This document shows, piece after piece, positions 1 through 14,443 of a DNA stretch of 14,443 nt (positions within the stretch are counted from its first letter, which is position 1; each line of letters starts with the position of its first letter). Origin of the DNA: Pseudobacteriovorax sp. (GTDB lineage: Bacteria; Bdellovibrionota_B; Oligoflexia; Oligoflexales; Oligoflexaceae); assembly GCA_050293845.1 (NCBI GenBank), contig JBNKNM010000139.1, positions 1 to 14,443 of the forward strand. The letters run 5' to 3'. The notes beneath the pieces are model-generated. The model made no database searches. It was given only the letters and a program-made list of their open reading frames with translations, and was not told where the DNA came from. Position numbers and translations under genes: made by a program.

Positions 1-21
1 GATTCGATGCTCGCCGCAGGG

Positions 22-76
22 CTTCTCCATTCCTCCCGGCCCTAAAGAGACCGGGGTTCCTGGAGAAGTTTGATGA
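22..76. mobile_element. Putative IS200/IS605-family element terminus (subterminal hairpin); any element would extend left of the window
   Basis: Nested inverted repeats: CTTCTCCA (22-29) / TGGAGAAG (61-68) enclose CCCGG (35-39) / CCGGG (51-55) around CCCTAAAGAGA, followed by TTTG-ATGA (ATGA at 73-76). From memory this resembles TTCCTCCC..CCTAAAG..GGGGTTTCC-type ends of IS200/IS605 elements. No transposase is visible in the window. Confidence 0.4.
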
Positions 77-466
77 AGGTTATTAAAGATTGATGTGTTG
101 CCCCCAAACCACTAGACCTAATGCCATTAAGAGCTTTTTTGGTTCTGTTGCAGCTACCAGGTCTGATTTTAAAATAACCTAACACTCGGGATAATCAAGA
201 AGCTATTCCATAGAAAATTTCTACCAAGGTATTACCCTCGGCATCAAGCTATCTTTTTCCAACCATCCTTATCGACTCAAACCCTGCAATGGATATCGTA
301 GCCAACCTAAAAAATTGGCAGCAAGGCAATAATCATCTTGGCTCGCTTGATTTACCATACTTGGCGAACCCGAAATCGATACGCTTTTTCGACAGTGAAT
401 GATGAATACAAGTGGTCAGCCCGCACTGTGTCTTAGCCTGCCCCATAACAAGCACCTATCCTTCTA

Positions 467-1585
467 CTAGTACACTTTAAGGCGTCGTTTCACCTGTACA
501 TATTTGGATTTAGGAACCCAAAAGCTGTAGTTCTTTGGTAGAGGCTTATGGTATCCCTTATTAAAAAGGCTTTTATTCATGCAGCGATTGAGGTTCTGTA
601 GCTCATGGCGCGTTAAGGAGGTTGACTTAATCAATTTAGCTGGAGAGATTGGCTTTTTTAGGGTTATCTTTGCTAGCTTATGGTGGGCCTTTGAGACTTT
701 ATTTCTCTTATATTTTTTAGCAAAAGCTCTACGAGCTGCTAAGAACTCCGCATAAAAGTTTCGACTGGCAAAGCCGAAACTGGTACCACGATAGTTCTTA
801 ATAAGATGACTTAAGTACTTACTATTCTCGGACTGTACGGCGCGCTTCATACCATATAAACCATGATTATAAGCGGTAATCGCTAAAGGCCAATTACCAA
901 GTTCTCGATAATTTCTTTTTAGCAATTGAGCAGCAGCTGCCGTGGCCTTGAAAGGTGAGTTTCTTTCGTCAATATAGTGAGTTACAGTCAAGTAACGGCG
1001 GGCGGTTGCTGGCATAAACTGCCAGATCCCTGATGCTCCTACTTTGGAGCGGGCTTCAACATTGAACATGGACTCAACAAATGGTAACCGAGTTAGCTCC
1101 TTAGGAAGACCAAAGGAAGCAAATATTCTTTCCATTTCCGGCAAATATGCAGCGGCACGTACCACAGCTTTTGCAAAAATATCTTTTAGACCCCGCTGCC
1201 CCCTTAACTTAGCTTTACCGGCTAAAAGCAGACTTCGATTTTCGCGATAAACTGAAAACAATCGCCGCTCAATAGAACCTAAGTAATAGGCTCTTTCGCC
1301 ATATTTTTGAAACTTTTCCACTCCAGCCATATAGCGTTCGAGCAGGTTTTCAATCCACTTCTCCTCGTCATCTTCATCGCTAAAACCCAGCTTTGGCAAG
1401 TCCACTACGTCGACAATGATTTCTGGATATTCACTATCGTGGATGATGATCTGTTCATTATGATAAGTAAGAAAAACCTGCTCCCAAAACCACACCTGGC
1501 GATCGATTATTGGAGCTGACGGGAAAGCAAACATGCCAGTACTTACCGTCATAGTGGTAATTATAGATATTATCCATGCTTTCAT
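467..1585 (-). CDS. Lytic murein transglycosylase, SLT domain (MltD-like), with N-terminal signal peptide and a degenerate LysM-like C-terminus
   Basis: 372 aa. SLT motifs LPFVESMFN (catalytic Glu), SKVGASGIWQFMPATARRY, and LAITAYNHG. Hydrophobic N-terminus. C-terminal ELQNLN...LPKNYSFWVPK resembles LysM. Confidence 0.92.
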   Translation of the reverse strand: MKAWIISIITTMTVSTGMFAFPSAPIIDRQVWFWEQVFLTYHNEQIIIHDSEYPEIIVDVVDLPKLGFSDEDDEEKWIENLLERYMAGVEKFQKYGERAYYLGSIERRLFSVYRENRSLLLAGKAKLRGQRGLKDIFAKAVVRAAAYLPEMERIFASFGLPKELTRLPFVESMFNVEARSKVGASGIWQFMPATARRYLTVTHYIDERNSPFKATAAAAQLLKRNYRELGNWPLAITAYNHGLYGMKRAVQSENSKYLSHLIKNYRGTSFGFASRNFYAEFLAARRAFAKKYKRNKVSKAHHKLAKITLKKPISPAKLIKSTSLTRHELQNLNRCMNKSLFNKGYHKPLPKNYSFWVPKSKYVQVKRRLKVY

Positions 1586-1588
1586 ACC

Positions 1589-2158
1589 CTAACCCTGACT
1601 AGAATATTTCCGAGGTAATGTCGGACTGGCTGGGCATCGGTCTGAAACTAGCTCTACATGCCGATTTTCCAGCAAATCCAACATTTTTCTTAAACGCGCA
1701 TTTGTGTTACTGGGCAAACCTCCATGGGACTGCGCATTCATGAAAGCTTCTTTAATGGACTCCAAATTTGCTCTGATGGCTATCAATTCCTTTTCAACAC
1801 TATGACCCGCTGTCCTAACTTCCTCAGGATTCCGACCCATCGCACTGCGAATTTCCTTACGCAGTTCATGCCCTAGATGCTGTACACATTGACCGGTATA
1901 ATGTTCACGCAGCACTGGGTTATTATATTGCGCATGCTCCCGTCCAAAAGAATCACCAAAGTAGAATCCCATAAAACCGCAGATAGTAGTGACAAAAAAA
2001 GCGAAAAGAAAAAAAAGTGTAATAGAAAATGCACCAGATCTTGGTTTTATTAATATCTGTGAACTATGGGATTCAGAAGTCACATTTGATTTGCTTTGCG
2101 CAACATTGCTTTTGGGTGGTGGGATGGGCTCATCCAATCCTACCGATGGTTCTCGCAT
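1589..2158 (-). CDS. Hypothetical single-pass membrane protein with helical/coiled-coil C-terminal domain
   Basis: The ORF track starts at 2179, but the ATG at 2158 is preceded by GGAGGGAG (good RBS), giving 189 aa. One TM segment (AFSITLFFLFAFFVTTICGFMGFYFG). Ends 3 bp before the transglycosylase start. Confidence 0.75.
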   Translation of the reverse strand: MREPSVGLDEPIPPPKSNVAQSKSNVTSESHSSQILIKPRSGAFSITLFFLFAFFVTTICGFMGFYFGDSFGREHAQYNNPVLREHYTGQCVQHLGHELRKEIRSAMGRNPEEVRTAGHSVEKELIAIRANLESIKEAFMNAQSHGGLPSNTNARLRKMLDLLENRHVELVSDRCPASPTLPRKYSSQG

Positions 2159-2327
2159 GTTTCTCCCTCCCTGGAACATCCTAGCGAGGACTTAAAATAT
2201 CAGAAATAGATCAATGATAAACCTAAAAAATAGACGTGACCTTCTTACACTGCATAACAGGAAACTATTGACACCATCCTCTCCCTGATACTCTCTTGCT
2301 TGAATCTCTGCAGAAGGGGACTTACAA

Positions 2328-2882
2328 TCAAACCGGATAACAAGGTCTTAGTGAGATTTCATCGCAAATCCAGCCCACTCTTAAGTCATGGGATTCACGA
2401 GGCAGGAGGGGAATTAGCTGCTGGGAAAATATAGCCCCCACCAAACGAAGACCCGATACTCCTTGAAAATAACGATCGTAGAATCCCCCACCATATCCTA
2501 AACGGATACCAGAATGATCTACCCCTACACATGGGATAATAACCATATCTTTTTGACTTGGAAAAACCTTTGCACCTGTAACGGGCTCATCAATTCCCCA
2601 GCGATTTTTTTGCAGAGGAACTCCTGGCTCCCATAAGTGGTAATGCATCACACCCTTAGCTACTACTTTTGGTATAGCCCATTTTTGTTGTTTGGGGCAA
2701 CATTGCAACAAGGATTGCAGGTCCAGTTCTGTACCAAATGCCATATAGGTAAAAATAGTATTCGGCTTCCACTTTTTTATCCAAGGTAGAAAGTTGTCGG
2801 CAACCCTTTGAGATAGCTCAGATCGATTTGAAATCGATTTTCGTTTGTGAAGCAATTGTTTGCGCAGTAGTTCTTTATTCAT
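2328..2882 (-). CDS. ygfA: 5-formyltetrahydrofolate cyclo-ligase (YgfA/Fau family)
   Basis: 184 aa. N-terminal KELLRKQL, NRWGIDEP, IIPCVGVDHSGIRLGYGGGFYDRYF signature, and C-terminal LPRESHDLRV. GGAG upstream of the start. Confidence 0.95.
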   Translation of the reverse strand: MNKELLRKQLLHKRKSISNRSELSQRVADNFLPWIKKWKPNTIFTYMAFGTELDLQSLLQCCPKQQKWAIPKVVAKGVMHYHLWEPGVPLQKNRWGIDEPVTGAKVFPSQKDMVIIPCVGVDHSGIRLGYGGGFYDRYFQGVSGLRLVGAIFSQQLIPLLPRESHDLRVGWICDEISLRPCYPV

Positions 2883-3109
2883 AATTGTTAACTCCGGTGT
2901 TTTACTTTTTTATACTTCATAGTTAAGTGTATGTTCCGCCTCTATTCGCACTCATGGATACCAGGAATGATTTTTTAACTAGATATTTCAGATCCTGGTA
3001 TTATTTATGAAATCAGAAAGATGAATCCAGCTAAGCAAATTTTGCCTTTTTTATTTGACGTTATGTCCCGATGAGATAGTAGTCAAAAAGGAAGCAACAA
3101 GATGGTACT

Positions 3110-5380
3110 ATGGAACCCAAAATCATATATATACATTCTCAGTTCCGGGTGAGATGCGAAATTTCGAAAGAGTTCTGCGATCAGAATCCATCACCCCCTA
3201 AGAAGCTTCTCCAAAGGGCTATTCGTAAGCTCGCTTTTGAGATGGCGACGGGGAATATTGATTCCTATGATTTTTATAACGAACGCCTCCACGAAGTATG
3301 GGATCTCTACCGCAATTCGTCTGCTCCCAAAACTGATGTTATAGCGATAACTCTAGCCACTGGCTGTCCTCAATTAAATGGCATCATCATAAGATCCCAA
3401 AGAAATGATTCCCAAATTGCTGCCAATGTCACAATAACAGCAGGAACAGATGAGGTCATCTCATGGCGGCCTGAACTACTAAAATATTACATTACCACAA
3501 AAATTAGAGCCTTTGCCCCAGATAGACTTATCAATACGGCAGAACTTTACGGATTATGGTATCTGGCGAGCCAGGGGGAAGAGATAAAAGATGTACCGAT
3601 TCATTTTTTAGAACCCGCCCATAAACCGACTACAGCAGCGACCTTAAAAGTACTACCATCTCTAGGGGGCATAATCGCATTGTATTGCTATAAGGTTACT
3701 AGCCTACAAGACAAATTGCCTCAGCAAAAGATTCTCCAAGCCTGTGCAAAGCTAGCAAAGAAAGAGTTTGGCTCCAAAAATTTTATCATTTTAAAAAATG
3801 ATATTATTAGCAAACTACAATCTGCAGTACGGGGAGTTGAGCGTTTTAATTTGGACCTTCCTATCGTTATGGTTGCAGCTATTCGACAACCCAAAAGTAA
3901 GAAAATTACAAAGATCTTACGGCAGAAAGCTAAAGAAGAGACGATAAGTACCTACGAGGCATTTAAGGAAAGATTTTCAAACTACTTAAGTATCAATGCA
4001 AGTTTTGATCTTATGACAGCTAGACTAAGCCTCGACCGTAAAGCATATCTTGACTTTCCTGAAATCGAAAGTAGTTGGATCAAAAACATTGTAGAAAAGC
4101 TCGGCTATCGAACTACTTCTGAGTCATTTGATAAAATGGAAAGTTTCCTTAAAAATCATATTCCTTTAGAGGATTTTGAATTCGCTTTTGGACGCAATCC
4201 TCAAGATGCGGACCAACCCTATATTCATCCCCTATATCAGGACGAAGAACTGCCAGGAGAGCATGAAACGGTTGACTTTCGTAAGATGAGCCGGCATGAA
4301 ATCGTAAAGCAGAGGGAACCCATCGCTGAAATCCGCTACATGATACAGGGGCAAGACGGCTATAATGTAAAAGGCGAGACAATCCCTTCTAAAGCTTTAA
4401 GCCATCTAGAGTACACCTACGACGAAGAAGGAATTAGAGTAAATGACAAAAATCAATTTATCGCACTGTTCGATGGCATTCCCAAAATCGAAAAGAATCA
4501 CATATCATTGAGTAAAATCTTGATACACAAAGGCAATGTAAACTTTACCTCTGGTGATATTGATTTTTCTGGAACGGTCGTTGTAAAAGGTGATATTGAG
4601 CAAGGAGCTACGCTTCGTGTCAAAGGAGACACTCATATTCATGGAAGTGTCTATGGTGGTAATCTGTTTATTGATGGCAACGTAGAAATTAACAATGGCA
4701 TCCGTTCTGGAGCTCCAGGTAGTATTAAGATATCAGGGGACATGGCAGTTGATTTTATTGAAAACTCTCATGTTGAAGTCAGGGGTACTATTACCACTAA
4801 AAAAGGAATTATTGGTGGCCTCACCTTGGTAGGCAGAGATTTGGAAGTGATTTCGAGAGTCGGTAAGATCTATGCCTGTAGACTTTACGTTTCAAATGAG
4901 GTGAGATGCCAAGATTTAGGTAAAAGCAGTGCTAAACGAACAGATGTCTACTTGGGAGTAGACTTCAACCTTTCCCAAAGGGCTACAAAAACTCAAAGAA
5001 GACTCGATTTTTTTGAAGAGCTACTTGAGGAAACACAACTATCTTTTCAAAATTTACAACAAAAAAAAATTCTCCCTGGAAAACAGGAAAAGCGCCGGCT
5101 AGAGCTGGAAGCCATGACCAATCGGCTGAACAAACTGAAAAGAATTGCAAAACACTTGAAGGCTCGTTTTTACTTTTTCACAAGAGGAACAGATCTGAAC
5201 GATCATTCTCGCTGTATGGTAAATGGAATCCTTTCTACCAATTGCTACTTCCATTTTGGCAAAAAGGTGATTAAAGCCCCCACCGAGATAGCCAGTATTA
5301 TGGCTCGCCATAATACCCATGGAAAGTCGCCTAAGGATTATTTTTTTCCTATTAAAAATGACGATTCATCAGCTTCTTAG
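3110..5380 (+). CDS. FapA / DUF342 family protein (flagellar assembly protein A-like) with long N-terminal extension
   Basis: 756 aa. VDFRKM..IVKQREPIAE, GQDGYNVKGETIP, then the beta-helix GNVNFTSGDIDFSGTVVVKGDIEQGATLRVKGDTHIHGSV, FIENSHVEVRG, LGKSSAKRTDVYLGVD and a C-terminal coiled coil. All are typical of DUF342. Confidence 0.85.
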   Translation: MEPKIIYIHSQFRVRCEISKEFCDQNPSPPKKLLQRAIRKLAFEMATGNIDSYDFYNERLHEVWDLYRNSSAPKTDVIAITLATGCPQLNGIIIRSQRNDSQIAANVTITAGTDEVISWRPELLKYYITTKIRAFAPDRLINTAELYGLWYLASQGEEIKDVPIHFLEPAHKPTTAATLKVLPSLGGIIALYCYKVTSLQDKLPQQKILQACAKLAKKEFGSKNFIILKNDIISKLQSAVRGVERFNLDLPIVMVAAIRQPKSKKITKILRQKAKEETISTYEAFKERFSNYLSINASFDLMTARLSLDRKAYLDFPEIESSWIKNIVEKLGYRTTSESFDKMESFLKNHIPLEDFEFAFGRNPQDADQPYIHPLYQDEELPGEHETVDFRKMSRHEIVKQREPIAEIRYMIQGQDGYNVKGETIPSKALSHLEYTYDEEGIRVNDKNQFIALFDGIPKIEKNHISLSKILIHKGNVNFTSGDIDFSGTVVVKGDIEQGATLRVKGDTHIHGSVYGGNLFIDGNVEINNGIRSGAPGSIKISGDMAVDFIENSHVEVRGTITTKKGIIGGLTLVGRDLEVISRVGKIYACRLYVSNEVRCQDLGKSSAKRTDVYLGVDFNLSQRATKTQRRLDFFEELLEETQLSFQNLQQKKILPGKQEKRRLELEAMTNRLNKLKRIAKHLKARFYFFTRGTDLNDHSRCMVNGILSTNCYFHFGKKVIKAPTEIASIMARHNTHGKSPKDYFFPIKNDDSSAS

Positions 5381-5766
5381 CTGTTTACTAGAAATGGCGA
5401 ATATTTATTGTCAACCTGTTTGATATGACCTACCAACCAAGCTTCTAGAAATATTACAATGTGCTCTCGCAGGTCAGGGGAGTCATCTTTTTGTATCTCG
5501 CGTGCAAAATACTGTAGCTTCTTCATGAGATTTCTGTGGATACGCTGGTGGTCTTCTAAATCTGAATATGCGATCGACTCCATGATTTCTTCTTCATAAA
5601 AAAAATGCTCCTGAGTAAGCTGTATTAATTCCAACAAGATCATACGTAAGCTTTCAGTATCAGCTTCTTTATGCTCCTCAAATTTAGCCATTTGCTTTAG
5701 GAGACCTTGATGCTGATTATCAATCTGCAAATCTTTGACTGCTAAATCATTTGTCCACTCAAACAT
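5377..5766 (-). CDS. Single-domain bacteriohemerythrin (non-heme di-iron O2-binding protein)
   Basis: Likely start is the ATG at 5766 (MFEWTNDL, GGGGA upstream), 129 aa. Complete ligand set: IDNQH, HFFYEE, HQRIH, WLVGHIKQVD. Confidence 0.93.
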   Translation of the reverse strand: MFEWTNDLAVKDLQIDNQHQGLLKQMAKFEEHKEADTESLRMILLELIQLTQEHFFYEEEIMESIAYSDLEDHQRIHRNLMKKLQYFAREIQKDDSPDLREHIVIFLEAWLVGHIKQVDNKYSPFLVNS

Positions 5767-5836
5767 CCGATATTTCCCCAAAGCAAAAAAGGTACTCCCC
5801 TTAAAGAGAAGCACCTCAAAATGTCATTTTTAAGGA

Positions 5837-6847
5837 TTATTGCACCGTAACATTTTTGATATACTGCCACTCCCAACGACCTGATACTTCAGAAAAGGCA
5901 CCAACACGAATATCGTATGTTCCGGGGCTAACACCCTGTAAAGCTATACTTGTTCCAGAAGTGCCAAACCTGTATTGCGGCTGAACCCAGCTACCCCCGG
6001 CACCCACAACCTCTACGGAATAACGGGCAATTCTTTCACCTGCCTGCCATGAAACAACACCACCGTTCCCTGATACCTGCCCACCACTTTGCGGCTGAGA
6101 AATGGGAAAACTGCGACGCTCAGGTGCTGTAATACGGAACATTCTGACTTCGCTAGCACCCTCCGCATTTACAACCTGCCAATACCAAGTTCCAGGGTAG
6201 GGATTATCAAAGGCGTAAAAGGTAGCACCATTAAGAGGTACTGACTTTGCGAGTGGTTGCATGCTAGGACTACGAGAAAAATTGATACGATCAGCAGCTC
6301 CTTCCCAGGTAAACTCTGCCGCTGCAGCTGTTTCATCATAGCCTCGACGGGCACCATCTGGTGGGCTGGTTATTTGGAAGGTTCCCGTATTTTGCATGGG
6401 CATGGTCTCTTCCATCATGGCGCCTTCTTCCATTTGAGTCTCTTCAGCAAGACTCTCAGTACCATCTGGAACATCAGCTAAGTCATCACCCTCAGCAAGA
6501 TCGGCAAGTTCATCCTCACCAATGCCCTCGGCATCTTCTGGAATATCGTCTGCAACCTCATCAGCAAACTCATCAGCAAATGGGTCATCTGGAGACGATG
6601 TCATGAAAAAGGCCACAGCTCCCAAAGCAAGCAGTACTATAGCACCAATAATAATGTATTTGGTACGATTTTCAGAACTAAAGCTACCACTTTTAAAGAT
6701 CTGCGAAACAGCATTAGTATTAGTGCCAAAGTCGCTTGAAAATTCTCCTTTTAAATCCCCAGTGAAGGGATTATTACCAGCCTGAGTGTCAGAACTAGTG
6801 TTGGTGTTAAAAGCAACATTTGACTGCGGATCATTATTATCGTTCAT
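5837..6847 (-). CDS. Hypothetical bitopic membrane protein: polar N-tail, one TM helix, D/E-rich linker, two Ig/FN3-like beta domains
   Basis: 336 aa. TM YIIIGAIVLLALGAVAFFM, acidic stretch (DDPFADEFADEVADDIPEDAEGIGEDE...), and tandem beta-rich units (SPPDG..FTWEG..PGTWYWQV; PQSG..VSWQ..PGTYDIRV). GGAG/GGGG upstream of the ATG. Confidence 0.8.
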   Translation of the reverse strand: MNDNNDPQSNVAFNTNTSSDTQAGNNPFTGDLKGEFSSDFGTNTNAVSQIFKSGSFSSENRTKYIIIGAIVLLALGAVAFFMTSSPDDPFADEFADEVADDIPEDAEGIGEDELADLAEGDDLADVPDGTESLAEETQMEEGAMMEETMPMQNTGTFQITSPPDGARRGYDETAAAAEFTWEGAADRINFSRSPSMQPLAKSVPLNGATFYAFDNPYPGTWYWQVVNAEGASEVRMFRITAPERRSFPISQPQSGGQVSGNGGVVSWQAGERIARYSVEVVGAGGSWVQPQYRFGTSGTSIALQGVSPGTYDIRVGAFSEVSGRWEWQYIKNVTVQ

Positions 6848-6927
6848 CCCCTACTCCATCCAGAGAGACAAAAGATTCACTAAACTATTTGCAGATTGAG
6901 CAAACTATCAACGGTGTCTCTATATTA

Positions 6928-6956
6928 AGTTTAATCAAGCCATGATGACAATTCAA
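6928..6956 (-). promoter_or_regulatory. Putative sigma70-type promoter for the 336-aa membrane protein gene
   Basis: Minus strand TTGAAT (6956-6951), 17-bp spacer, TAAACT (6933-6928). Confidence 0.35.
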
Positions 6957-6986
6957 CTCAGCACACAAAATTTGCGTTTTTTTTTA

Positions 6987-8804
6987 TTAATAATCTGAGG
7001 AAGCTTTTATGAAGTTGCTATACCTTTGGGATGATAATAATTGATTATGACTACCAATTAATTTGACTTTACCATTTTCAACAAACCATATTTCATCAAA
7101 ATTATGCAGCCACTGTAATCGATGGGTCACAAACAAAAGTCCCACCCTCTGCCCTGAAACCTCCTTAAGTAAATGATGGGTAATGAGTTTTTCATTCTCC
7201 ATATCAATAGCTGATGTAGCTTCATCAAGAACTAGGAAAGGTTTTCCTCGTAACAGAGACCTGGCTATAACCAGCCTCTGAATCTGTCCACCCGAAAAAT
7301 TAGAGCGAACCGCTGCAATCTTACTTTCAAGCCCCTCAGGCAATACCTGAATATGATCTGCAATTCCTACTTTTTCCAACGATTTCCAAATATCTTCTTC
7401 GGAAACTTTTTGCACAAGACCGTAAATAAGGTTGTTACGTATACTATCCTCGAACATGAAAGGCTTCTGGCTCACAAAAGAAGTAGACTGGGTAAATTTT
7501 TTCCAATCAATATCAGCATCCCACCGAATCGGCGGCAATAAACCCACCAAAGTCCTCACGATAGTAGACTTTCCAGCGCCACTAGGTCCTACAATAGCAA
7601 TGCTTTTACCAGGCTCTAGCACAAATTTTGAGCCTATGAACCGCACTTTATCATTATAACCAGCCGCAATGTATTTTATCTTTATGAGGTTTGTTTTTAT
7701 GGGGGCTTGTGTCGACTTTTCTGGGAAAGAGGAAGAAAACTCATGATCAAAGATTTTATAACCTTCTTGTAAAGCTCCTTTTGTTTCCTGCAGCCTTGCT
7801 ACTTGTTCTCCTAAAGATTTCAAAGGCCTCAGTAAAACCCCCAGTGCTGCTAGAAACTGAATTAACTCCTCGGGACCAAACTCTTGTCCAAATAACCGCT
7901 TCGACAACAGTAGTAAAACTCCGGAAAACCCCAAGAAACCAAACATCTCTAGACCTGGGGAAAACGTAGACCTTAAAAAAATAGATTTTTTAATGGTGTG
8001 ATAATACTTGTCATTCAGCCTTTCAAACAGCTTGATTTCATAGCTTTGTGATTGCTGGGCTTGAATAAAAGGGTAACGTTTTCTTAGTGATAAGATAAAT
8101 CCAGACATTTTACCTAGGTCTTTTTGCCATCCTTCGGCAAAATGTGATATCCGCCGCGAAATTTGCCCCAATATCACAAATAGAAAAGGAGAGCCTATCA
8201 ATAAGACCATAGCTGTTTGCCAATGAATAATAAACATGGCTGCCAAAGCCGAAATGATAAGCACCGAGTCTTTAATGAAACTAGCCATAAAGTCTGAATA
8301 ACGCGACTGTAGATAGAGGACATCATTCATAAGAACAGACATCCACTCACCGGGAGTACGTTTATTGATTTCATGATAGGAACGATTAAGGATTGCCCCA
8401 AATAATCGATCTCGATAACGCTTAGCTACATGAAAGGATAAAGCCTGCTGATTGTACTGAAAGAAATAACCAGCGACCCCTTTGGCAAATACAGCAATTA
8501 GCAGCCCCCCCGGAATGAGCCATATAATATTCTGTTTAGAGAGCTGGACATCTGCCAAATTAGGGAAGTAGTCGGTAATTTTGCTGCTGAAAAGCTCCGT
8601 TATAGGAATCGTTTCTAGCTGTCCTAAGGTAAAAAGACTTTTAAAAAATGGACCTAGCAACAATAAAAACAGTGATTGTGATATTGAGAGTACAATTAAT
8701 GCGAGAATAATGACCCCCAGCCTTTGGGGAAAATCCAGCATAGGAGAAAGGAACAAAGAGGTAAACTTTTGCCGAGGGTTAGAAGGGATTTGAAGGTTGA
8801 TCAT
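6987..8804 (-). CDS. msbA: Lipid A export ABC transporter MsbA-like (TMD + NBD half transporter)
   Basis: 605 aa, about 6 TM segments. LLRPLKSL matches E. coli MsbA TM6 (LMRPLKSL). Walker A GPSGAGKST, Q-loop FVSQ, signature FSGGQ, Walker B LVLDEATSAID, H-loop VTHRL. ATGA overlap with the lpxB-like stop codon. Confidence 0.8.
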   Translation of the reverse strand: MINLQIPSNPRQKFTSLFLSPMLDFPQRLGVIILALIVLSISQSLFLLLLGPFFKSLFTLGQLETIPITELFSSKITDYFPNLADVQLSKQNIIWLIPGGLLIAVFAKGVAGYFFQYNQQALSFHVAKRYRDRLFGAILNRSYHEINKRTPGEWMSVLMNDVLYLQSRYSDFMASFIKDSVLIISALAAMFIIHWQTAMVLLIGSPFLFVILGQISRRISHFAEGWQKDLGKMSGFILSLRKRYPFIQAQQSQSYEIKLFERLNDKYYHTIKKSIFLRSTFSPGLEMFGFLGFSGVLLLLSKRLFGQEFGPEELIQFLAALGVLLRPLKSLGEQVARLQETKGALQEGYKIFDHEFSSSFPEKSTQAPIKTNLIKIKYIAAGYNDKVRFIGSKFVLEPGKSIAIVGPSGAGKSTIVRTLVGLLPPIRWDADIDWKKFTQSTSFVSQKPFMFEDSIRNNLIYGLVQKVSEEDIWKSLEKVGIADHIQVLPEGLESKIAAVRSNFSGGQIQRLVIARSLLRGKPFLVLDEATSAIDMENEKLITHHLLKEVSGQRVGLLFVTHRLQWLHNFDEIWFVENGKVKLIGSHNQLLSSQRYSNFIKASSDY

Positions 8805-9964
8805 GCAGGTTGTGAGCCTTTTGTTTTCTTTTTAAAACTCCAAGTGGCAATTTCTCTGCCAATGAGTTCTGCCGCATTATCGGCAGTAAAACCCGTCAGC
8901 ACACTACGTAGCTGCGCTATATCTTTTATCAAGTTCTCCCGTTTATCGCCATCTTTAAAAAGTAGTTCTAATTCATCTGCAATTAACTCTACAGAGTCAC
9001 TAAGCTTGTATTCAGGGTGAATCATGCGTTCTGCTATTTGATTAGCTAGGGACTTTATTTGACCGAGAGAAATGACTGGTGTCTTTAAAAGACACGCTTC
9101 GACAGTACTTGAACCACAGCTAGTAAGCAGTACTCTAGCTAGAGCTATAGTCTCCAAGCCCATGCCTTGTTGAATTTTAATACGATCCCCCGCGAGATAT
9201 TCAAGCGTGTTTCCTTCCTCAACTGATTTTAAGCCGGAGATAAGCGTTCGGATCTCATCTTTTAATTCCTGATAAACTTCCAGTGGTAAAGAGTAAATAA
9301 TATGGGCTGCTTCTTGTCGGTTTAGAAACTCTTTCGCAATAGCCACCATTGAAGGCAAGTTTCCACGAGCCTCTCTTACCGTATTTCCCGGAAAAACAGC
9401 CAAAAAATGCTCATCATCGTCTAAACCTAACGCTAGTGGCGAAACTTTCACCCTATCGATACGATCCCTTGTTGGGGAACCCAAGAATTCGTAAGGAGTT
9501 TCAACTTTCTGGAGAATCCCGTAGGGCTTGGGAAAAAAACCAATCACTACAGTAAGATATGTTTGAATCTCTTTAATATCAATGCCCTCCCAAACGGAAG
9601 GCGGAGTCAGACCGTAAAGCACCACTGGGATACCACGGCCAAAGAAATACTTAGCCAAAATATGATGCAAACGAGAATAACCGACTAAAATGGCAACTTG
9701 AGGATTTAGTTGAGAAAGCTCGGATACAATATCTTGAAAAAAGTCCTGGGCAGCTGGCGTTGCTATTCCTTTATCATGCAGCTGCATACTATCAATTTGA
9801 CTTAGCTCTTTGATGACAGGAATTCTTGTGCGAAGAGTAGCATTGCCCGCAAGGCTGTAGCCCTCCACCTTCGAATATTGCTCCCGTATTGCTAAGACAA
9901 GTTCAGCCCCCCAAATATCCGCCGACTGTGATCGACTAGATATAAAATAGGTCGGTCGTTTCAA
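8801..9964 (-). CDS. lpxB: Divergent lipid-A-disaccharide synthase (LpxB/GT19)-like protein with catalytic motifs degenerate
   Basis: Colinear with LpxB over its full length (SADIWGAELV, LNPQVAILV, GIPVVLY, FLGSP, LAVFPG, SCGSSTVEACLLKTP, SLANQIA) and located between lpxA and msbA. Likely start is TTG at 9964 (AGGAG 7 nt upstream, TTGA overlap with the lpxA stop) rather than GTG at 9970. Confidence 0.75.
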   Translation of the reverse strand: MKRPTYFISSRSQSADIWGAELVLAIREQYSKVEGYSLAGNATLRTRIPVIKELSQIDSMQLHDKGIATPAAQDFFQDIVSELSQLNPQVAILVGYSRLHHILAKYFFGRGIPVVLYGLTPPSVWEGIDIKEIQTYLTVVIGFFPKPYGILQKVETPYEFLGSPTRDRIDRVKVSPLALGLDDDEHFLAVFPGNTVREARGNLPSMVAIAKEFLNRQEAAHIIYSLPLEVYQELKDEIRTLISGLKSVEEGNTLEYLAGDRIKIQQGMGLETIALARVLLTSCGSSTVEACLLKTPVISLGQIKSLANQIAERMIHPEYKLSDSVELIADELELLFKDGDKRENLIKDIAQLRSVLTGFTADNAAELIGREIATWSFKKKTKGSQPA

Positions 9965-10782
9965 CGACACACTCCTCGTTCGCTACTTTGCAAAAAGTCT
10001 AGAAACAGCTGCCGTGACTCGGAAACATTAACTTCTTGCTCAATCCTTACAATGGCATCCTCTAACCTTAGATTCTCATTATAAAGTATTTTGAACATAT
10101 TTTTAATGTCAAATAATTGCTTGCGGTCTAAGCCTGAGCGGCGTAACCCTACCAAGTTTAACCCATTTATACGAGCGCGATCTCCTTGTACCAAACAAAA
10201 AGGAGGGACATCTTGCACCACAATGGCACCAGCCGCCACCATAGCTCGGCTACCAAAACGGCAAAACTGGTGGGCTCCTGACATACCTCCAAACACCACA
10301 GCATCACCTATAATGACATGTCCTGCGAGTTGCACGCTATTTGCAAATATACAATTATTGCCAATATGACAATCATGGGCGATATGGGTGTAAACCATGA
10401 TGAGGTTATCATCACCGATAGAGGTTTCGCCTCCTCCACCCACTGTGCCAAGAGAAATATTTACATATTCACGTATTTTATTACGTTTACCTATTGTTAA
10501 CCTTGTCGGTTCATTGGCAAACTTCAGGTCTTGGGGATCTGAGCCCACAGTAGCCATAGGATAGATTTTAGTATCCTCATCGATAAAGGTATGCCCAGAA
10601 ACAATCGCTCCTGCCCCTATCTGCACCCCTTTTGCCAGTTTTACATGCGGACCCACTATCGCGTTGGGGCCAACGACTACCTCAAGATCTAACTCCGCTC
10701 CCTTAGAAACTAATGCAGATGGGTGGATGTTACTGTTATTAGGGATGTTCTTATGAAGCTCAAAGTTAGAGTAGTCAAACAT
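9961..10782 (-). CDS. lpxA: Acyl-ACP--UDP-N-acetylglucosamine O-acyltransferase
   Basis: 273 aa. Hexapeptide repeats, PQDLKF, HIAHDC (catalytic His), LAGHV, HQFC, QDVPPF, GLNLVGLRR, and C-terminal SERG. Confidence 0.97.
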   Translation of the reverse strand: MFDYSNFELHKNIPNNSNIHPSALVSKGAELDLEVVVGPNAIVGPHVKLAKGVQIGAGAIVSGHTFIDEDTKIYPMATVGSDPQDLKFANEPTRLTIGKRNKIREYVNISLGTVGGGGETSIGDDNLIMVYTHIAHDCHIGNNCIFANSVQLAGHVIIGDAVVFGGMSGAHQFCRFGSRAMVAAGAIVVQDVPPFCLVQGDRARINGLNLVGLRRSGLDRKQLFDIKNMFKILYNENLRLEDAIVRIEQEVNVSESRQLFLDFLQSSERGVCR

Positions 10783-10823
10783 CTTGGTCGTCCTTACATG
10801 ATCCTCTTTTCACAAAGGTCAAG

Positions 10824-10852
10824 ATAATACAAGGCGCACAGCCAATATACAA
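10824..10852 (-). promoter_or_regulatory. Putative internal sigma70-type promoter upstream of lpxA
   Basis: In the 134-bp fabZ-lpxA gap: minus strand TTGTAT (10852-10847), 17-bp spacer, TATTAT (10829-10824). Confidence 0.35.
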
Positions 10853-10916
10853 TACTATTTAGACAGATAATCTGCTTATAATGAGGTAAAACCGATACTA
10901 ATGTAATAATGCCAAG

Positions 10917-11369
10917 TTACGCTAGTTTGGCTGTAAATTTTGCCTGAGCAGCCGTTTCCCCATTCACTGTCCCCTCCCCTTCAAACCAGAAAAAATCTTT
11001 CCTCGCCTTTACGAGACTGACTTTTAGTTTTAGCAGATCACCTGGTACTACAGGCCTACGAAATCGACTTTCACTGATTTCCGTTAACAAGCAAGTTTGG
11101 CAATCTTGTCCCTTACTTATCCGTCCCAAAATAGCTGATGCCTGCGCTAAGGCCTCTACCATCAAGACCCCTGGCATCACAGGATTATCCGGGAAATGTC
11201 CCTGCAAGTAGGGGTCGAGAGCTGAAACTGCCTTGACACCTTCAATGTATTCCATAGGAGAAAAGTCGACCACTCTATCAATGAGTAAGAAGGGATAGCG
11301 ATGGGGAATCAGCTTTTGAATTTCCGTAACATTCAATAACTTATTAGCTTTACCAAGTAGATCATCCAT
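10917..11369 (-). CDS. fabZ: 3-hydroxyacyl-ACP dehydratase
   Basis: IPHRYPFLLIDRV, GHFPDNPVMPGVLMVEALAQ, FRRPVVPGD. Start placed at ATG 11369 (GGAGG 5 nt upstream), 150 aa. Confidence 0.97.
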   Translation of the reverse strand: MDDLLGKANKLLNVTEIQKLIPHRYPFLLIDRVVDFSPMEYIEGVKAVSALDPYLQGHFPDNPVMPGVLMVEALAQASAILGRISKGQDCQTCLLTEISESRFRRPVVPGDLLKLKVSLVKARKDFFWFEGEGTVNGETAAQAKFTAKLA

Positions 11370-11392
11370 CTCTACCTCCAATCCACTTACTT

Positions 11393-11956
11393 TTATTTTT
11401 TGGCTGACCTTTTATTGCCTTTTGACCCAAAAGAATCAATAACTTCTTTGGTTAAGTCAACAGGATCTTTCAAAAAGAGTAAACCAGCACTGTTAGTTTC
11501 AAAAACCATCTCAAATCCACGCTTTTTGGCTAAGTCATTTACAAACTTACTAACGCTGACCGCAATTTTTTGGGTAGCTAGCTGCTCTTTCCTTTTTATC
11601 TCCTGCTGAAAAGCCATTTCTGAATTTCGCAACGCCATAAATTTTTGCTGAAATTCCTGCTGCTTTTTCAAGCGGGCATCCTCGCTTAACAATGCAGCTT
11701 GCTCTTTCCAGTCATTATTCAGCTTATCGAGTTCTTTCTTTTGATTCAGCAGCTCAGCCTCCTTTGCCTTGATCTCCTTTTCTAGAGCTTCCCGGGCTTT
11801 CTTTCCCTCGTCTACATTGAGAATCACAGCTTGCATATCAACCACAGCATAGCGAGCTTTAGCTGCCGCAATGCTTTGACTGGCAGCAAGAACCGCCATG
11901 GCGACTAAAAGAATTTTAACAGAGCGTCCCAAAGAGAAATTGTTACCGATTTTCAT
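11393..11956 (-). CDS. skp: Periplasmic chaperone Skp/OmpH
   Basis: 187 aa. Signal peptide, YAVVDMQAVI, long coiled coil, AKKRGFEMVF, DLTKEVI. Directly downstream of bamA with an AAGGA RBS. Confidence 0.93.
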   Translation of the reverse strand: MKIGNNFSLGRSVKILLVAMAVLAASQSIAAAKARYAVVDMQAVILNVDEGKKAREALEKEIKAKEAELLNQKKELDKLNNDWKEQAALLSEDARLKKQQEFQQKFMALRNSEMAFQQEIKRKEQLATQKIAVSVSKFVNDLAKKRGFEMVFETNSAGLLFLKDPVDLTKEVIDSFGSKGNKRSAKK

Positions 11957-11971
11957 GGGGTGAGTCCTTTC

Positions 11972-14272
11972 CTAATACCCTAAGTAGAAAATAAATTCTA
12001 AGTCACCTAATTGTCCGTCCTCTACCGGATAGGCCCATTCAAACCGAAATGGAGCTACAGGCGTAATCCAACGGAATCCAAATCCGACGTCACTAACAAA
12101 GTCTTTATATACAAAAGCTTCGCTTTCAGTGTATACACGACCCGTATCATAGAAAAATAATCCTTTAATATTCGCGTCTTTAATGACGGGAAAGAAGTAC
12201 TCCAGCTGTAACAAAGCTTGCTTGTTTCCACCACCATTAATTTCACTAGGGAAACCGCTCGGTGCTCGCAAAATATTAAACTTTGGCCCAACACTTCGGA
12301 ACTCATAACCTCTTAAATTTTCAGGTCCCCCGAGAGTATAGCGAGTCAATAGTGGAATCTCTTCATCGCCCATAGGCCACAATAAGCCAAAAAGACCATG
12401 CACTCGGAAATAAGTTCGATAAGTATCCGAAAAATCTATAGGATAATAGTATGACGCGTCCAAAGTAGTTTCCAAATAGGATCTATCGCCGCCAAATACT
12501 CCTCCAGTAATTTCTTGGCTAAGTCGCACATTAGAGCCATCCGAAGGGTCAATATAATTATTTGTATTATTTCGTGAAAGTGACAAAATCAACGAATGAG
12601 CCTGGCCTACAGACAAAAAGGCAGGAGGCGTATAAGTATCAGAGTCCTGGGTAATTTTCGAGAATCGGAATCCAATAGAAGCCCGAATCAGCTCGATGAT
12701 GCGTTTGCCTATGGAAAAGCTAATACCATGTCGTGCTTCTTGGATTTGCACATCTGTAGTGAGCCTTCTCACTTCATTACGGGTTGTAGCATTTACCCCA
12801 AAAGACCAGTAACTGTCATTGACCCTAGGATTGCGAAACCCTAGCTCCAGGCTATAATTCTTACCGCCATTCCACTTACCAGTGAAGCTAGTTTGCCATC
12901 CAAGCCCACTTTGATTCTCTTCTGAATAACGCCCTTGTCCAAAAAACTTGTTTTCATCGCTGTCAGAACTGGGGCTGAAACCTAGGGCAGCCTGTAACTG
13001 GCCAGTGGCTTTTTCCTTAACCTTAAACTTATAATTCAGGACATTAGGTCTCTTTTCATCTCTTCGCTTTATGGTCTGAACTTCTTCGAAAAAACCCAAC
13101 CTTTCAATATTGCGTTTTGACAAAGATAAGCGGGTACCACTGTAAAGTTCACCATCCGCTACCTCTAGCTCACGCCGGATGACATTATCACGGGTTTTGG
13201 TGTTACCGACGAATTTAAACTCACCAAAATAAACCTTTTCACCCTTGGTGATGTCATAATTGAGATGAACCAATTTTTTCTCGCGATCGAAACGATGTCG
13301 AGGATTCACATCCGCAAAAGCGAAACCTTTATCGCCATACTTATCTATCAGTCTTTCAATGTCTTTACGGAAAAGAGTAAAGCGAAATAGTTCATTATCC
13401 TTAAGATTCATCCACTCCCGCATTTCCTCTTCAGGATATAGGATATCCCCTGAAAACTTGATCGAGCCGATACTGTATTGTATCCCCTCCTCAATTTCCA
13501 TCGTGATCCGCACAAATTTACGATCAGCATCCATGACTGTTATCGGCTTACTAACCTGTACCTCAGCAAATCCCTGATCTTTGTATAAGTAAGCAATAAC
13601 CTCGGCATCTCGTTTGATAAACTCATCGTTATAGACAGAGCCAGGACCTGAAAACGTGGAACTTCTCGTTAGTGGTTTAGAAAAAAACTTATCGATAAGA
13701 TCAGCGTCGCTAAAATACTCGTTGCCCAGGACGTGAACATCCCCGACTAAAACCTTTCCTCCCTCATCGATGATAAACTGTAAATCAACCTGATTGGGGT
13801 TGTCGGGGAGTGGAACCAGCTTATAACTTGCTTTAGCAAGATAAAACCCTTTTTCAAGGTACATTTTCTCGATCATACGCACATCATTGGTCACCGCACC
13901 TTCATCGAGAATGGAAAACAATTCCGTCTCTAACTTGTCTTTGAAGTCACCGTCACTCAACTCATCCAAGCCAATAAAGGATATGGATACGACAGAAGGT
14001 TTTTCTTTGACGTCAATAATGAGACGCACTCCACCAGAGACGCTTTCTTTGTAAACGCGAATATCTGAAAAGTAACCCAAATCGTGGAGATCAAGAATAT
14101 CTTCGCGAATTTTATCTTTAGAAAGTTTATGTCCAGCCTTACTTCGTAGAATCGTTGTTATGGCATTGGCTTCAACTTTGGCGTTACCTCGCACCTTAAC
14201 TGACTTAATGACTTCAGCAAAAACAGTTGAGCTGAATACAACTCCCATTAGTAAACTTAAAAATAGCTTCAC
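11972..14272 (-). CDS. bamA: Outer membrane protein assembly factor BamA
   Basis: POTRA repeats (VKVRGN, GYFSDI, GNTKTRDNVIRRE, LGFFEEV, VKEKATG), barrel with LRGY (VRGF-type) motif, GFGFRWITPVAPFRFEWAYP, terminal FIFYLGY. Start placed at GTG 14272 (GGAGG 6 nt upstream; signal peptide MKLFLSLLMGVVFSSTVFA). The ORF is open up to 14389. Confidence 0.96.
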   Translation of the reverse strand: MKLFLSLLMGVVFSSTVFAEVIKSVKVRGNAKVEANAITTILRSKAGHKLSKDKIREDILDLHDLGYFSDIRVYKESVSGGVRLIIDVKEKPSVVSISFIGLDELSDGDFKDKLETELFSILDEGAVTNDVRMIEKMYLEKGFYLAKASYKLVPLPDNPNQVDLQFIIDEGGKVLVGDVHVLGNEYFSDADLIDKFFSKPLTRSSTFSGPGSVYNDEFIKRDAEVIAYLYKDQGFAEVQVSKPITVMDADRKFVRITMEIEEGIQYSIGSIKFSGDILYPEEEMREWMNLKDNELFRFTLFRKDIERLIDKYGDKGFAFADVNPRHRFDREKKLVHLNYDITKGEKVYFGEFKFVGNTKTRDNVIRRELEVADGELYSGTRLSLSKRNIERLGFFEEVQTIKRRDEKRPNVLNYKFKVKEKATGQLQAALGFSPSSDSDENKFFGQGRYSEENQSGLGWQTSFTGKWNGGKNYSLELGFRNPRVNDSYWSFGVNATTRNEVRRLTTDVQIQEARHGISFSIGKRIIELIRASIGFRFSKITQDSDTYTPPAFLSVGQAHSLILSLSRNNTNNYIDPSDGSNVRLSQEITGGVFGGDRSYLETTLDASYYYPIDFSDTYRTYFRVHGLFGLLWPMGDEEIPLLTRYTLGGPENLRGYEFRSVGPKFNILRAPSGFPSEINGGGNKQALLQLEYFFPVIKDANIKGLFFYDTGRVYTESEAFVYKDFVSDVGFGFRWITPVAPFRFEWAYPVEDGQLGDLEFIFYLGY

Positions 14273-14443
14273 CAATCGCCTCCAAGATCGACGACTTTTC
14301 CATCTTCCATCACTACTTGGCTTGGCAAACGTTGCCCCAGTTGCAAATCGTGCGTGACGAGTAGCATGGTAACACCATTCTTTCGACATAATTCCAACAA
14401 CAACCCCTCTACAATTTCGCTACTTTTTTTATCTAAATTTCCT

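Follow-up and report, generated by a model that had tools for sequence, protein, structure and literature searches.

What becomes of a gene that holds the lpxB position in a lipid A operon when residues needed for lipid A disaccharide synthesis have been replaced in its product? The question is raised by a stretch of 14,443 nucleotides from Pseudobacteriovorax sp. (assembly GCA_050293845.1, contig JBNKNM010000139.1, positions 1 to 14,443), hereafter the window, which is contig C139 of a genome (G000) of 6.68 Mb in 741 contigs that is 96% complete. Between lpxA and the gene of an ATP-binding cassette (ABC) exporter the minus strand carries an open reading frame (ORF; 8801-9964 or 8801-9970) for a degenerate homologue of LpxB, to which we gave the working name D. 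Sequence comparisons and structural models lead us to favour, on balance, the view that D is a retained pseudo-LpxB and not a disaccharide synthase, and that it is probably a soluble binding or regulatory protein. The ORF list and translation give D an unbroken reading frame of 389 amino acids (aa) from a GTG at 9970 or, more likely, of 387 aa from a TTG at 9964, which forms TTGA with the stop codon of lpxA (9961-10782, minus strand) and has a GGAG about 8 nt upstream. At its other end D stops with TGA (8803-8801), which shares an ATGA with the start codon of the ABC gene (6987-8804, minus strand). The full-length, unbroken ORF with 4-nt overlaps at lpxA and the ABC gene that was described in the initial annotation of the window is borne out, both overlaps being real if TTG 9964 is the start used.

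Two profile models that the initial annotation had proposed for comparison place D in the homology family of glycosyltransferase family 19 (GT19) and outside the functionally uniform LpxB group: D scores 77.5 bits on PF02684 (cut-off 22.6, residues 9-324) and 65.1 bits on the LpxB equivalog TIGR00215, below the cut-off of 190.25. A HMMER comparison of D with E. coli LpxB (5W8S) gives 39.8 bits, and the two proteins are homologous over residues 10-322 in the alignment to 5W8S and 5W8N. This alignment reproduces all the motif changes that had been listed by eye, including D98 to Gly and R201 to Thr: G-E-T-S-G-D has become R-S-Q-S-A-D, P-F-E has become P-K-P, P-G-S-R has become P-G-N-T and S-G-T has become C-G-S. 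On the minus strand of the window, the codons for Arg13-Ser14, at the place of E. coli G14-E15 in the N-terminal G-loop, lie at 9929-9934, that for Gly97 at the place of D98 lies at 9680-9682, and that for Thr197 at the place of R201, a diphosphate contact to the uridine diphosphate (UDP) leaving group, lies at 9380-9382. The substitutions in the window D are E15 to Ser, D98 to Gly, W126 to Ser, S200 to Asn, R201 to Thr and T277 to Ser, and E150 is lost as well. Retained are S17, D19 (D18 in D), P198-G199 (Pro194-Gly195 in D), G276, the ribose-binding E281 (Glu291 in D, codon at 9098-9100) and N316, and a Trp stands in the column of W128, the other Trp of the lipid groove. We also considered an Arg two residues past Thr197 as a substitute for R201 and set it aside, since it is not conserved among the D sequences of the alignment.

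The available text of Bohl et al. 2018 (PMC5785501) gives E15, S17, D98, P198, G199, S200, R201, T277 and E281 as functional residues of E. coli LpxB, assigns ribose binding to E281, calls D98 the 'predicted' catalytic base and reports 0.005% of wild-type activity for R201A. The initial annotation had taken both D98 and R201 to be required for activity; this holds for R201, whose alanine mutant is experimentally dead, and overstates the case for D98, which is only a predicted base. Erosion is not a general feature of the operon. The neighbouring LpxA (NF003657, 341 bits, cut-off 226) and FabZ (10917-11381, minus strand; 163 bits, cut-off 113) are canonical, as had been noted from the sequence, and the erosion is therefore specific to D.

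To see how far the changes extend beyond the window we tabulated sites over 75 aligned LpxB-family rows, 49 of them canonical and 26 belonging to the D clade delimited below. Asp at D98 is found in 49/49 canonical rows; the D clade has Gly in 25/26, the remaining row, P0015, having Asp. At E15 all 49 canonical rows are acidic (E in 47, D in 2, preceded by G at G14 in 48/49), while none of the 25 D-clade rows covering the site is, and the core D clade carries R and S at positions 13 and 14 in 20/20 and 19/20 rows. Each of W126, W128, F149, E150, S200, R201, S275 and T277 is kept in all 49 canonical rows. In the D clade W126 is kept in none of the 26, W128 in 10, E150 in 4, S200 in 7 and T277 in 4; Phe at F149 occurs only in P0070, and the R201 column holds Arg in 13 rows, Tyr in 7 and other residues in 6. 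Other sites persist on both sides: P198 (48/49 canonical, 26/26 D clade), G199 (49/49, 26/26), G276 (49/49, 25/26), E281 (48/49, 25/26) and N316 (49/49, 26/26). About 25 residues specific to the clade, R5, R13, K34, R47 and R49 among them, are conserved among D sequences that are only 27-43% identical. Early-branching members of the clade have more canonical residues than the core, and the window D is among the most eroded. The outliers of the clade are the metagenomic proteins P0015, P0070, P0028 and P0013; P0015 retains D98, R201 and T277, lacks W126 and W128 and is short in the region of helix 14, and P0070 has lost the ribose-binding Glu too.

An intact lpxB paralogue elsewhere in the genome, for which the initial annotation had recommended a search, was found on contig C123. 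In a whole-genome search its 391-aa product scores 291 bits on PF02684; it reaches 234.8 bits on TIGR00215 (cut-off 190.25) and 179 bits against 5W8N, and has every motif and listed catalytic residue intact. It is 23% identical to D, and the two genes are unlinked, on separate contigs. D is thus a homologue without residues required for catalysis in a genome that also encodes a canonical paralogue with those residues intact, which is the pattern by which a pseudoenzyme is recognized. The canonical gene (locus L001 on C123, 1369-2544, minus strand) has immediately upstream a Gfo/Idh/MocA gene (2545-3591, minus strand) whose best NCBIfam match is UDP-N-acetylglucosamine (UDP-GlcNAc) 3-dehydrogenase at 172 bits, below the cut-off, so we refer to it as GnnA-like. 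Its occurrence in 21/21 other genomes of the family versus 1/19 genomes of other families in the order hints, as far as gene content can, at a family-specific 2,3-diamino-glucose lipid A backbone. The Raetz pathway genes in the genome include LpxC (a fragment at a contig end), LpxD above its cut-off, LpxK and WaaA. Of the lpxH, lpxI and lpxK genes that had also been proposed as search targets, lpxK is thus present; LpxI (PF06230) was not found in the 96%-complete genome, and for LpxH the search returned just a weak LpxH-like phosphoesterase on C21 (40 bits on TIGR01854, 52 bits on PRK05340, below the cut-offs), so that these searches yielded no confident UDP-2,3-diacylglucosamine hydrolase.

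We searched 40 relatives with the window D, comprising 21 other genomes of the same family and 19 of other families in the order. All 21 family genomes have a match to this query. A D-type gene is present in 18 of them, at 31-43% identity to the window D and with no internal stops; 15 of these were fetched and verified, while for G009 and G014 the assignment rests on the score and on a place directly after lpxA, and for G016 on the score alone. The canonical second copy occurs in 20/21 family genomes, none being found with this query in G014, which is 82% complete, so that a D-type match is accompanied by a canonical one in 17 of the 18 D-bearing genomes among them. In the 19 genomes of other families we found one match in 16, none in three and two in no case. 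Among the genomes searched, D-type genes were found only in the Pseudobacteriovorax-containing family of Oligoflexales. One member, G002, encodes P0003, which NCBI names as a protein of Pseudobacteriovorax antillogorgiicola (Oligoflexales, Pseudobacteriovoracaceae), and this species carries both D and the canonical copy.

Gene order around D is stable. The arrangement bamA-ompH-fabZ-lpxA-D-ABC-(hypothetical)-MTHFS, in which MTHFS stands for the 5-formyltetrahydrofolate cyclo-ligase gene, is found at 10/10 widely flanked D loci. In the sister families a lone canonical LpxB holds the same slot at 9/11 loci, the other two showing LpxB-ABC only, and its overlaps with the neighbouring genes are shared with D and are ancestral. 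This conserved slot identifies D as the positional descendant of the ancestral lpxB. The canonical copy of the family lies elsewhere, adjoining the GnnA-like gene in 10/14 fetched loci. A profile built from 15 D sequences and run against 1.84 billion representative proteins gave 9,029 matches at E <= 0.001, of which nine score 339-607 bits, the next two 278 and 276, and the rest form a continuum of ordinary LpxBs. In a tree of the 75 rows (quick IQ-TREE run, LG+G4, with the poor rows C_L043, O_L049 and D_L006 dropped beforehand) the D-type rows and five metagenomic proteins (P0012, P0013, P0015, P0028 and P0070) form one clade of 26 with a Shimodaira-Hasegawa-like approximate likelihood ratio (SH-aLRT) support of 99. 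The canonical copies of the family form a separate clade (SH-aLRT 98), and both clades lie among the LpxBs of the order.

Structural models agree with the family assignment and point to two further losses. The AlphaFold2 (AF2) model of D has a predicted local distance difference test score (pLDDT) of 92.8 and a GT-B fold, the canonical paralogue modelled likewise having a pLDDT of 90.2. The best Foldseek matches of the D model are the LpxB entries 5w8x, 5w8n and 5w8s (E 1.7e-17 to 3.6e-16, 5w8x at the top). With VIA-align the model superposes on 5W8X with Z 22.1 and a root mean square deviation of 3.1 over 275 residues, model residues 4-305 lying on chain residues 5-295, and the superposition extends just to residue 295, which is the swap point of the E. 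coli dimer. A fold likeness to UDP-GlcNAc 2-epimerase (Z about 25, 11-15% identity) was considered as a functional lead; it is a likeness of common non-swapped GT-B architecture, and the lead was rejected because D nests in the LpxB family by sequence.

The first of these losses concerns the membrane. According to the available text on the E. coli enzyme, a hydrophobic loop and helix of LpxB is required for membrane association and mutation of the loop abolishes activity (PMC5785501). The equivalent loop of D (E. coli V66-L76) is polar, with a median Kyte-Doolittle value of -0.29 versus +0.65 to +0.79 in the canonical groups. The isoelectric point (pI) of D is about 7.0 versus 8.5-8.8 in canonical proteins. 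D ends in a basic tail conserved in the D clade (8804-8851, minus strand), the last 20 residues carrying a net charge whose median is +3.5 to +4 in D versus -0.5 to +1 in the canonical groups. The loss of the hydrophobic loop bears on the proposal that D is still a lipid A disaccharide synthase, weak or specialised, which we regard as very unlikely indeed. The LpxB fold, the operon slot and the presence of S17, D19, E281 and N316 are what such an enzyme would show; yet D98, E150, W126 and R201, invariant in 49/49 canonical rows, and the acidic residue at E15 are gone, the loop whose mutation silences the E. coli enzyme is lost, the score on the equivalog model is 65 bits against a cut-off of 190, and an intact LpxB is encoded elsewhere in the genome.

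The second loss concerns the dimer. The segment between the equivalents of E281 and N316 is shortened in D (9041-9097, minus strand), and spacing and models agree that crossover helix 14 is missing from it. The two sites are 34-36 residues apart in the 49 canonical rows, 18-32 in the D clade and 18, the shortest spacing, in the window D, and every D row lacks the helix. In the D model the strand at 299-302 is followed by the helix at 308-313 with none in between, at a place where the model of the canonical paralogue has a helix at 305-314. The initial annotation had suggested that D might be a heterodimer partner of an active paralogue, that is, a non-catalytic subunit resembling a prozyme that activates or regulates canonical LpxB. 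Such pairing would suit an enzyme that, in the available account of E. coli LpxB, is an obligate C-terminally swapped dimer in which mixing two differently crippled mutants brings back part of the activity (PMC5785501), and it would suit the co-occurrence of D-type and canonical genes in 17/18 other D-bearing family genomes, the exception being G014. It finds no support here: a canonical swapped heterodimer is disfavoured because helix 14 is deleted, D is unlinked to the canonical copy, and the canonical copy persists in the genomes from which D has been deleted. A complex prediction with canonical LpxB and D supplied as alignments gave an ipSAE of 0.00 in two runs for which controls were not run, and is evidence neither way. 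We consider a subunit of this kind improbable.

Selection on D was estimated as the ratio of nonsynonymous to synonymous substitution (dN/dS) by the NG86 method, using close pairs from the sister genus and not from the window's own lineage. In three close genome pairs D has a dN/dS of 0.094-0.109, and in the same pairs the canonical copy has 0.062-0.064, lpxA 0.042-0.092 and the ABC gene 0.057-0.072. Over six pairs of four genomes the value for D is about 0.10, with 0.049-0.085 in the N-domain and 0.11-0.15 in the C-domain. The protein-level rate of D exceeds that of the canonical copy by a factor of 1.1-2. The window D has no orthologue nearer than one of 43% identity, at which dS is saturated; dN is 0.59, well below dS. 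Following the check laid out in the initial annotation, a dN/dS of about 0.1, away from the value of about 1 expected of simple decay, indicates that D is not simply decaying.

Purifying selection goes together with occasional loss. In G001, which belongs to the same genus, and in G004 D is absent, and 64 and 22 bp, respectively, separate lpxA from the ABC gene (junctions at 2322-2387 of L051 and 2280-2303 of L054), and no second D-type match was obtained in either genome with the window D query. G007 has a shortened D of 316 aa in the slot (L045, 5873-6823), still overlapping both neighbours by 4 nt. One could therefore suppose that D is a departing relic, a functionless protein whose frame is kept open mainly to couple translation of lpxA and the ABC gene. 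The 4-nt overlaps at both ends, the clean losses in G001 and G004, the shrinkage in G007, the faster protein-level rate and the position of the window D among the most eroded members all lend themselves to that view. We give it little credence, as a dN/dS of about 0.1 over 389 codons, lower still in the N-domain (0.05-0.085), is unlike that of a spacer ORF, about 25 clade-specific residues are conserved at 27-43% identity, the AF2 model is confident, and the overlaps are ancestral, being found at the canonical lpxB of the sister families as well. The gene thus encodes a functional protein under purifying selection, yet it can be lost.

The history that we favour would run as follows. D would descend from the ancestral, operon-resident lpxB and would have ceased to act as a lipid A disaccharide synthase once the family gained a second, canonical, GnnA-linked lpxB, so that the copy on C123 would now most likely catalyse disaccharide synthesis. 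D keeps the GT-B fold and, as what is left of the nucleotide pocket, P198-G199, G276 and the Glu that binds ribose. Gone are the acceptor-side and base residues (E15, D98, E150), W126 of the lipid groove, S200 and R201 as contacts to the diphosphate, the hydrophobic loop for membrane association and the helix at which the dimer crosses over. D may now be a soluble protein, probably non-swapped, that binds some ligand or partner but catalyses no reaction. Because Arg13, Arg47 and Arg49 are newly conserved and the tail is basic, this ligand or partner is likely anionic or nucleotide-like, and the nucleotide-pocket remnants together with the constrained, more basic cleft of the N-domain suggest a nucleotide-like or phosphorylated ligand. 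The role of D would be accessory or regulatory, tied to the lpxA-ABC operon, and dispensable.

Several points weigh against this reading. It draws wholly on sequences and models. The constraint on the window D itself is only bounded, there being no close relative and the same-genus G001 having lost D. The N-domain, which is the site of the lost catalytic residues, is the most constrained part of the protein, and this shows that there is function there, not which function. The tree was made by a quick method, its deep forks are unsettled, and it does not decide whether the canonical copy arose by duplication or transfer. As D98 is a predicted base, another residue may serve instead, such as His102/His103, which are conserved, or D18, which is retained. 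Finally, the presence of R201 in half of the clade and of the ribose-binding Glu and PG loop nearly throughout also fits a working nucleotide-sugar enzyme.

The last two points lead to the alternative that D is a neofunctionalised GT19 glycosyltransferase, which would bind a nucleotide sugar, use another acceptor, probably non-lipid or differently presented, and rely on another base such as His102/His103 or Asp18. In its favour, 25-26 of the 26 rows retain the PG loop, G276 and the ribose-binding Glu and 13 retain R201, the N-domain is strongly constrained (dN/dS 0.05-0.085), new invariant motifs surround the former active-site loops, and the GT-B fold is intact at a pLDDT of 92.8. Against an enzyme, however, speak the variability of S200, R201 and T277 (kept in 7, 13 and 4 of 26 rows), which is unusual for an active GT-B enzyme, the lack of a conserved new acidic residue in the cleft, the deletion of D from two genomes in which this query found no second D-type match, and the absence of linked genes for a candidate product or pathway. 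Our judgement is that a new transferase is rather unlikely, though it retains a real chance. The initial annotation had read D as a dead LpxB; this stands in so far as catalytic residues invariant in canonical rows are gone, and of the two alternatives that it offered we lean to a non-catalytic protein over an enzyme with new substrates.

Taking D as a pseudo-LpxB, we tentatively put forward a more specific picture, as a possibility short of probable. D-type proteins may be the first functional branch of GT19 other than LpxB, soluble and non-swapped, in which the arginine-rich N-domain cleft and the nucleotide pocket would bind a UDP-linked or phosphorylated lipid A precursor and so sense, or act as a gate on, the flux that runs between LpxA and the operon's ABC exporter. 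D would then be a pseudo-glycosyltransferase dedicated to regulation within the Raetz pathway. The branch would date from the time at which catalysis passed to the GnnA-linked lpxB module, and the lipid A backbone may have changed to 2,3-diamino-glucose along with it.

The exporter gene downstream of D matches PF00664 and PF00005, and its earlier designation as msbA is right as to type, the product being MsbA-like, and too specific as to identity, the score on TIGR02203 being 264.5 bits, below the cut-off of 602. It ranks sixth among the ABC exporters of the genome on this model, a better MsbA candidate being encoded at G000:C264:897-2603 (487 bits), and orthologues in the same slot of sister families score 209-253 bits (5/5 scored). 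The idea that D is an adaptor to MsbA gains no support, for the ABC gene is still present in two genomes that lack D, and a stronger MsbA candidate is encoded elsewhere in G000. Upstream of fabZ on the minus strand lie ompH/skp (11393-11956) and bamA (11972-14389), both with Pfam and NCBIfam matches. In E. coli lpxD lies between ompH and fabZ. In the window it is absent from that place (10783-11972), and the sole LpxD above its cut-off is at G000:C51:5234-6157.

On the other side, 3' of the ABC gene, a conserved hypothetical protein of 336 aa without Pfam or NCBIfam match is encoded at 5837-6847 (minus strand). It is syntenic across the order, where it is kept beside the 5-formyltetrahydrofolate cyclo-ligase gene, and the Atlas cluster nearest to it is that of a hypothetical protein from Bdellovibrionota. 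A FapA-domain protein of 756 aa, with about 290 N-terminal residues lacking a Pfam match, is encoded at 3110-5380 (plus strand), and a hemerythrin-domain gene at 5377-5814 (minus strand) converges with it, their ends overlapping by 4 nt. An Rfam scan of the window gave nothing at gathering score.

If D is indeed a pseudo-LpxB, its clade offers a natural experiment that separates the parts of LpxB devoted to catalysis from those with some other use, and D becomes a candidate for an accessory or regulatory part in the assembly of lipid A. The enzyme LpxB is an antibiotic target. The locus also carries a warning for annotation: in this family the gene in the lpxB slot of the operon is probably not the enzyme, and pathway reconstructions from metagenome-assembled genomes would name the wrong gene. 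The take-over by a paralogue can be placed at the base of one Oligoflexales family and linked to a GnnA-like gene. P. antillogorgiicola has been cultured, and the question of D should therefore be testable at the bench.

To our knowledge, LpxB is the sole activity of GT19. Full-text literature searches for a catalytically degenerate LpxB (as pseudoenzyme or paralogue, as lpxB1/lpxB2, and as LpxB or GT19 in Oligoflexia/Bdellovibrionota) turned up no report, and D would represent a pseudoenzyme branch of GT19 of a kind not met in the literature searched. An LpxB-related family of unassigned function is described by TIGR03492 ('lipid-A-disaccharide synthase-related protein'), and D, at 15.3 bits (cut-off 219.2), falls outside it. 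The streptococcal GT-B protein GtfB, which partners GtfA and is non-catalytic, shows the same pattern of a dead paralogue. The trypanosome AdoMetDC (S-adenosylmethionine decarboxylase) prozyme, as far as it is described in the available text (PMC5201418), is like D in being a duplicated enzyme that lacks catalytic residues and is under selection. Both the prozyme and GtfB pair with an active partner, whereas D shows no sign here of pairing with its active paralogue. Leptospira resembles the present case by description, having two lpxB genes, lpxB1 and lpxB2, in one genome with the second patchily distributed, and the available text (PMC4758666) makes no claim of lost catalytic residues there.

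The closest comparison remains LpxB itself. D and the canonical LpxB of its own genome, with the orthologues of each, share family and fold, D being 23% identical to the latter and having a dN/dS of 0.10 versus 0.06. With the E. coli GT19 enzyme, as the available text and the structures 5W8S, 5W8N and 5W8X present it (Bohl et al. 2018, PMC5785501), D shares the GT-B fold up to the swap point, the retained S17, D19, P198-G199, G276, E281 and N316, and the place downstream of fabZ-lpxA. It differs from that enzyme in the replacement of E15, D98, W126, E150, S200 and R201, in its polar loop and the absence of helix 14, and in its lower pI, its new conserved Arg residues and its basic tail.

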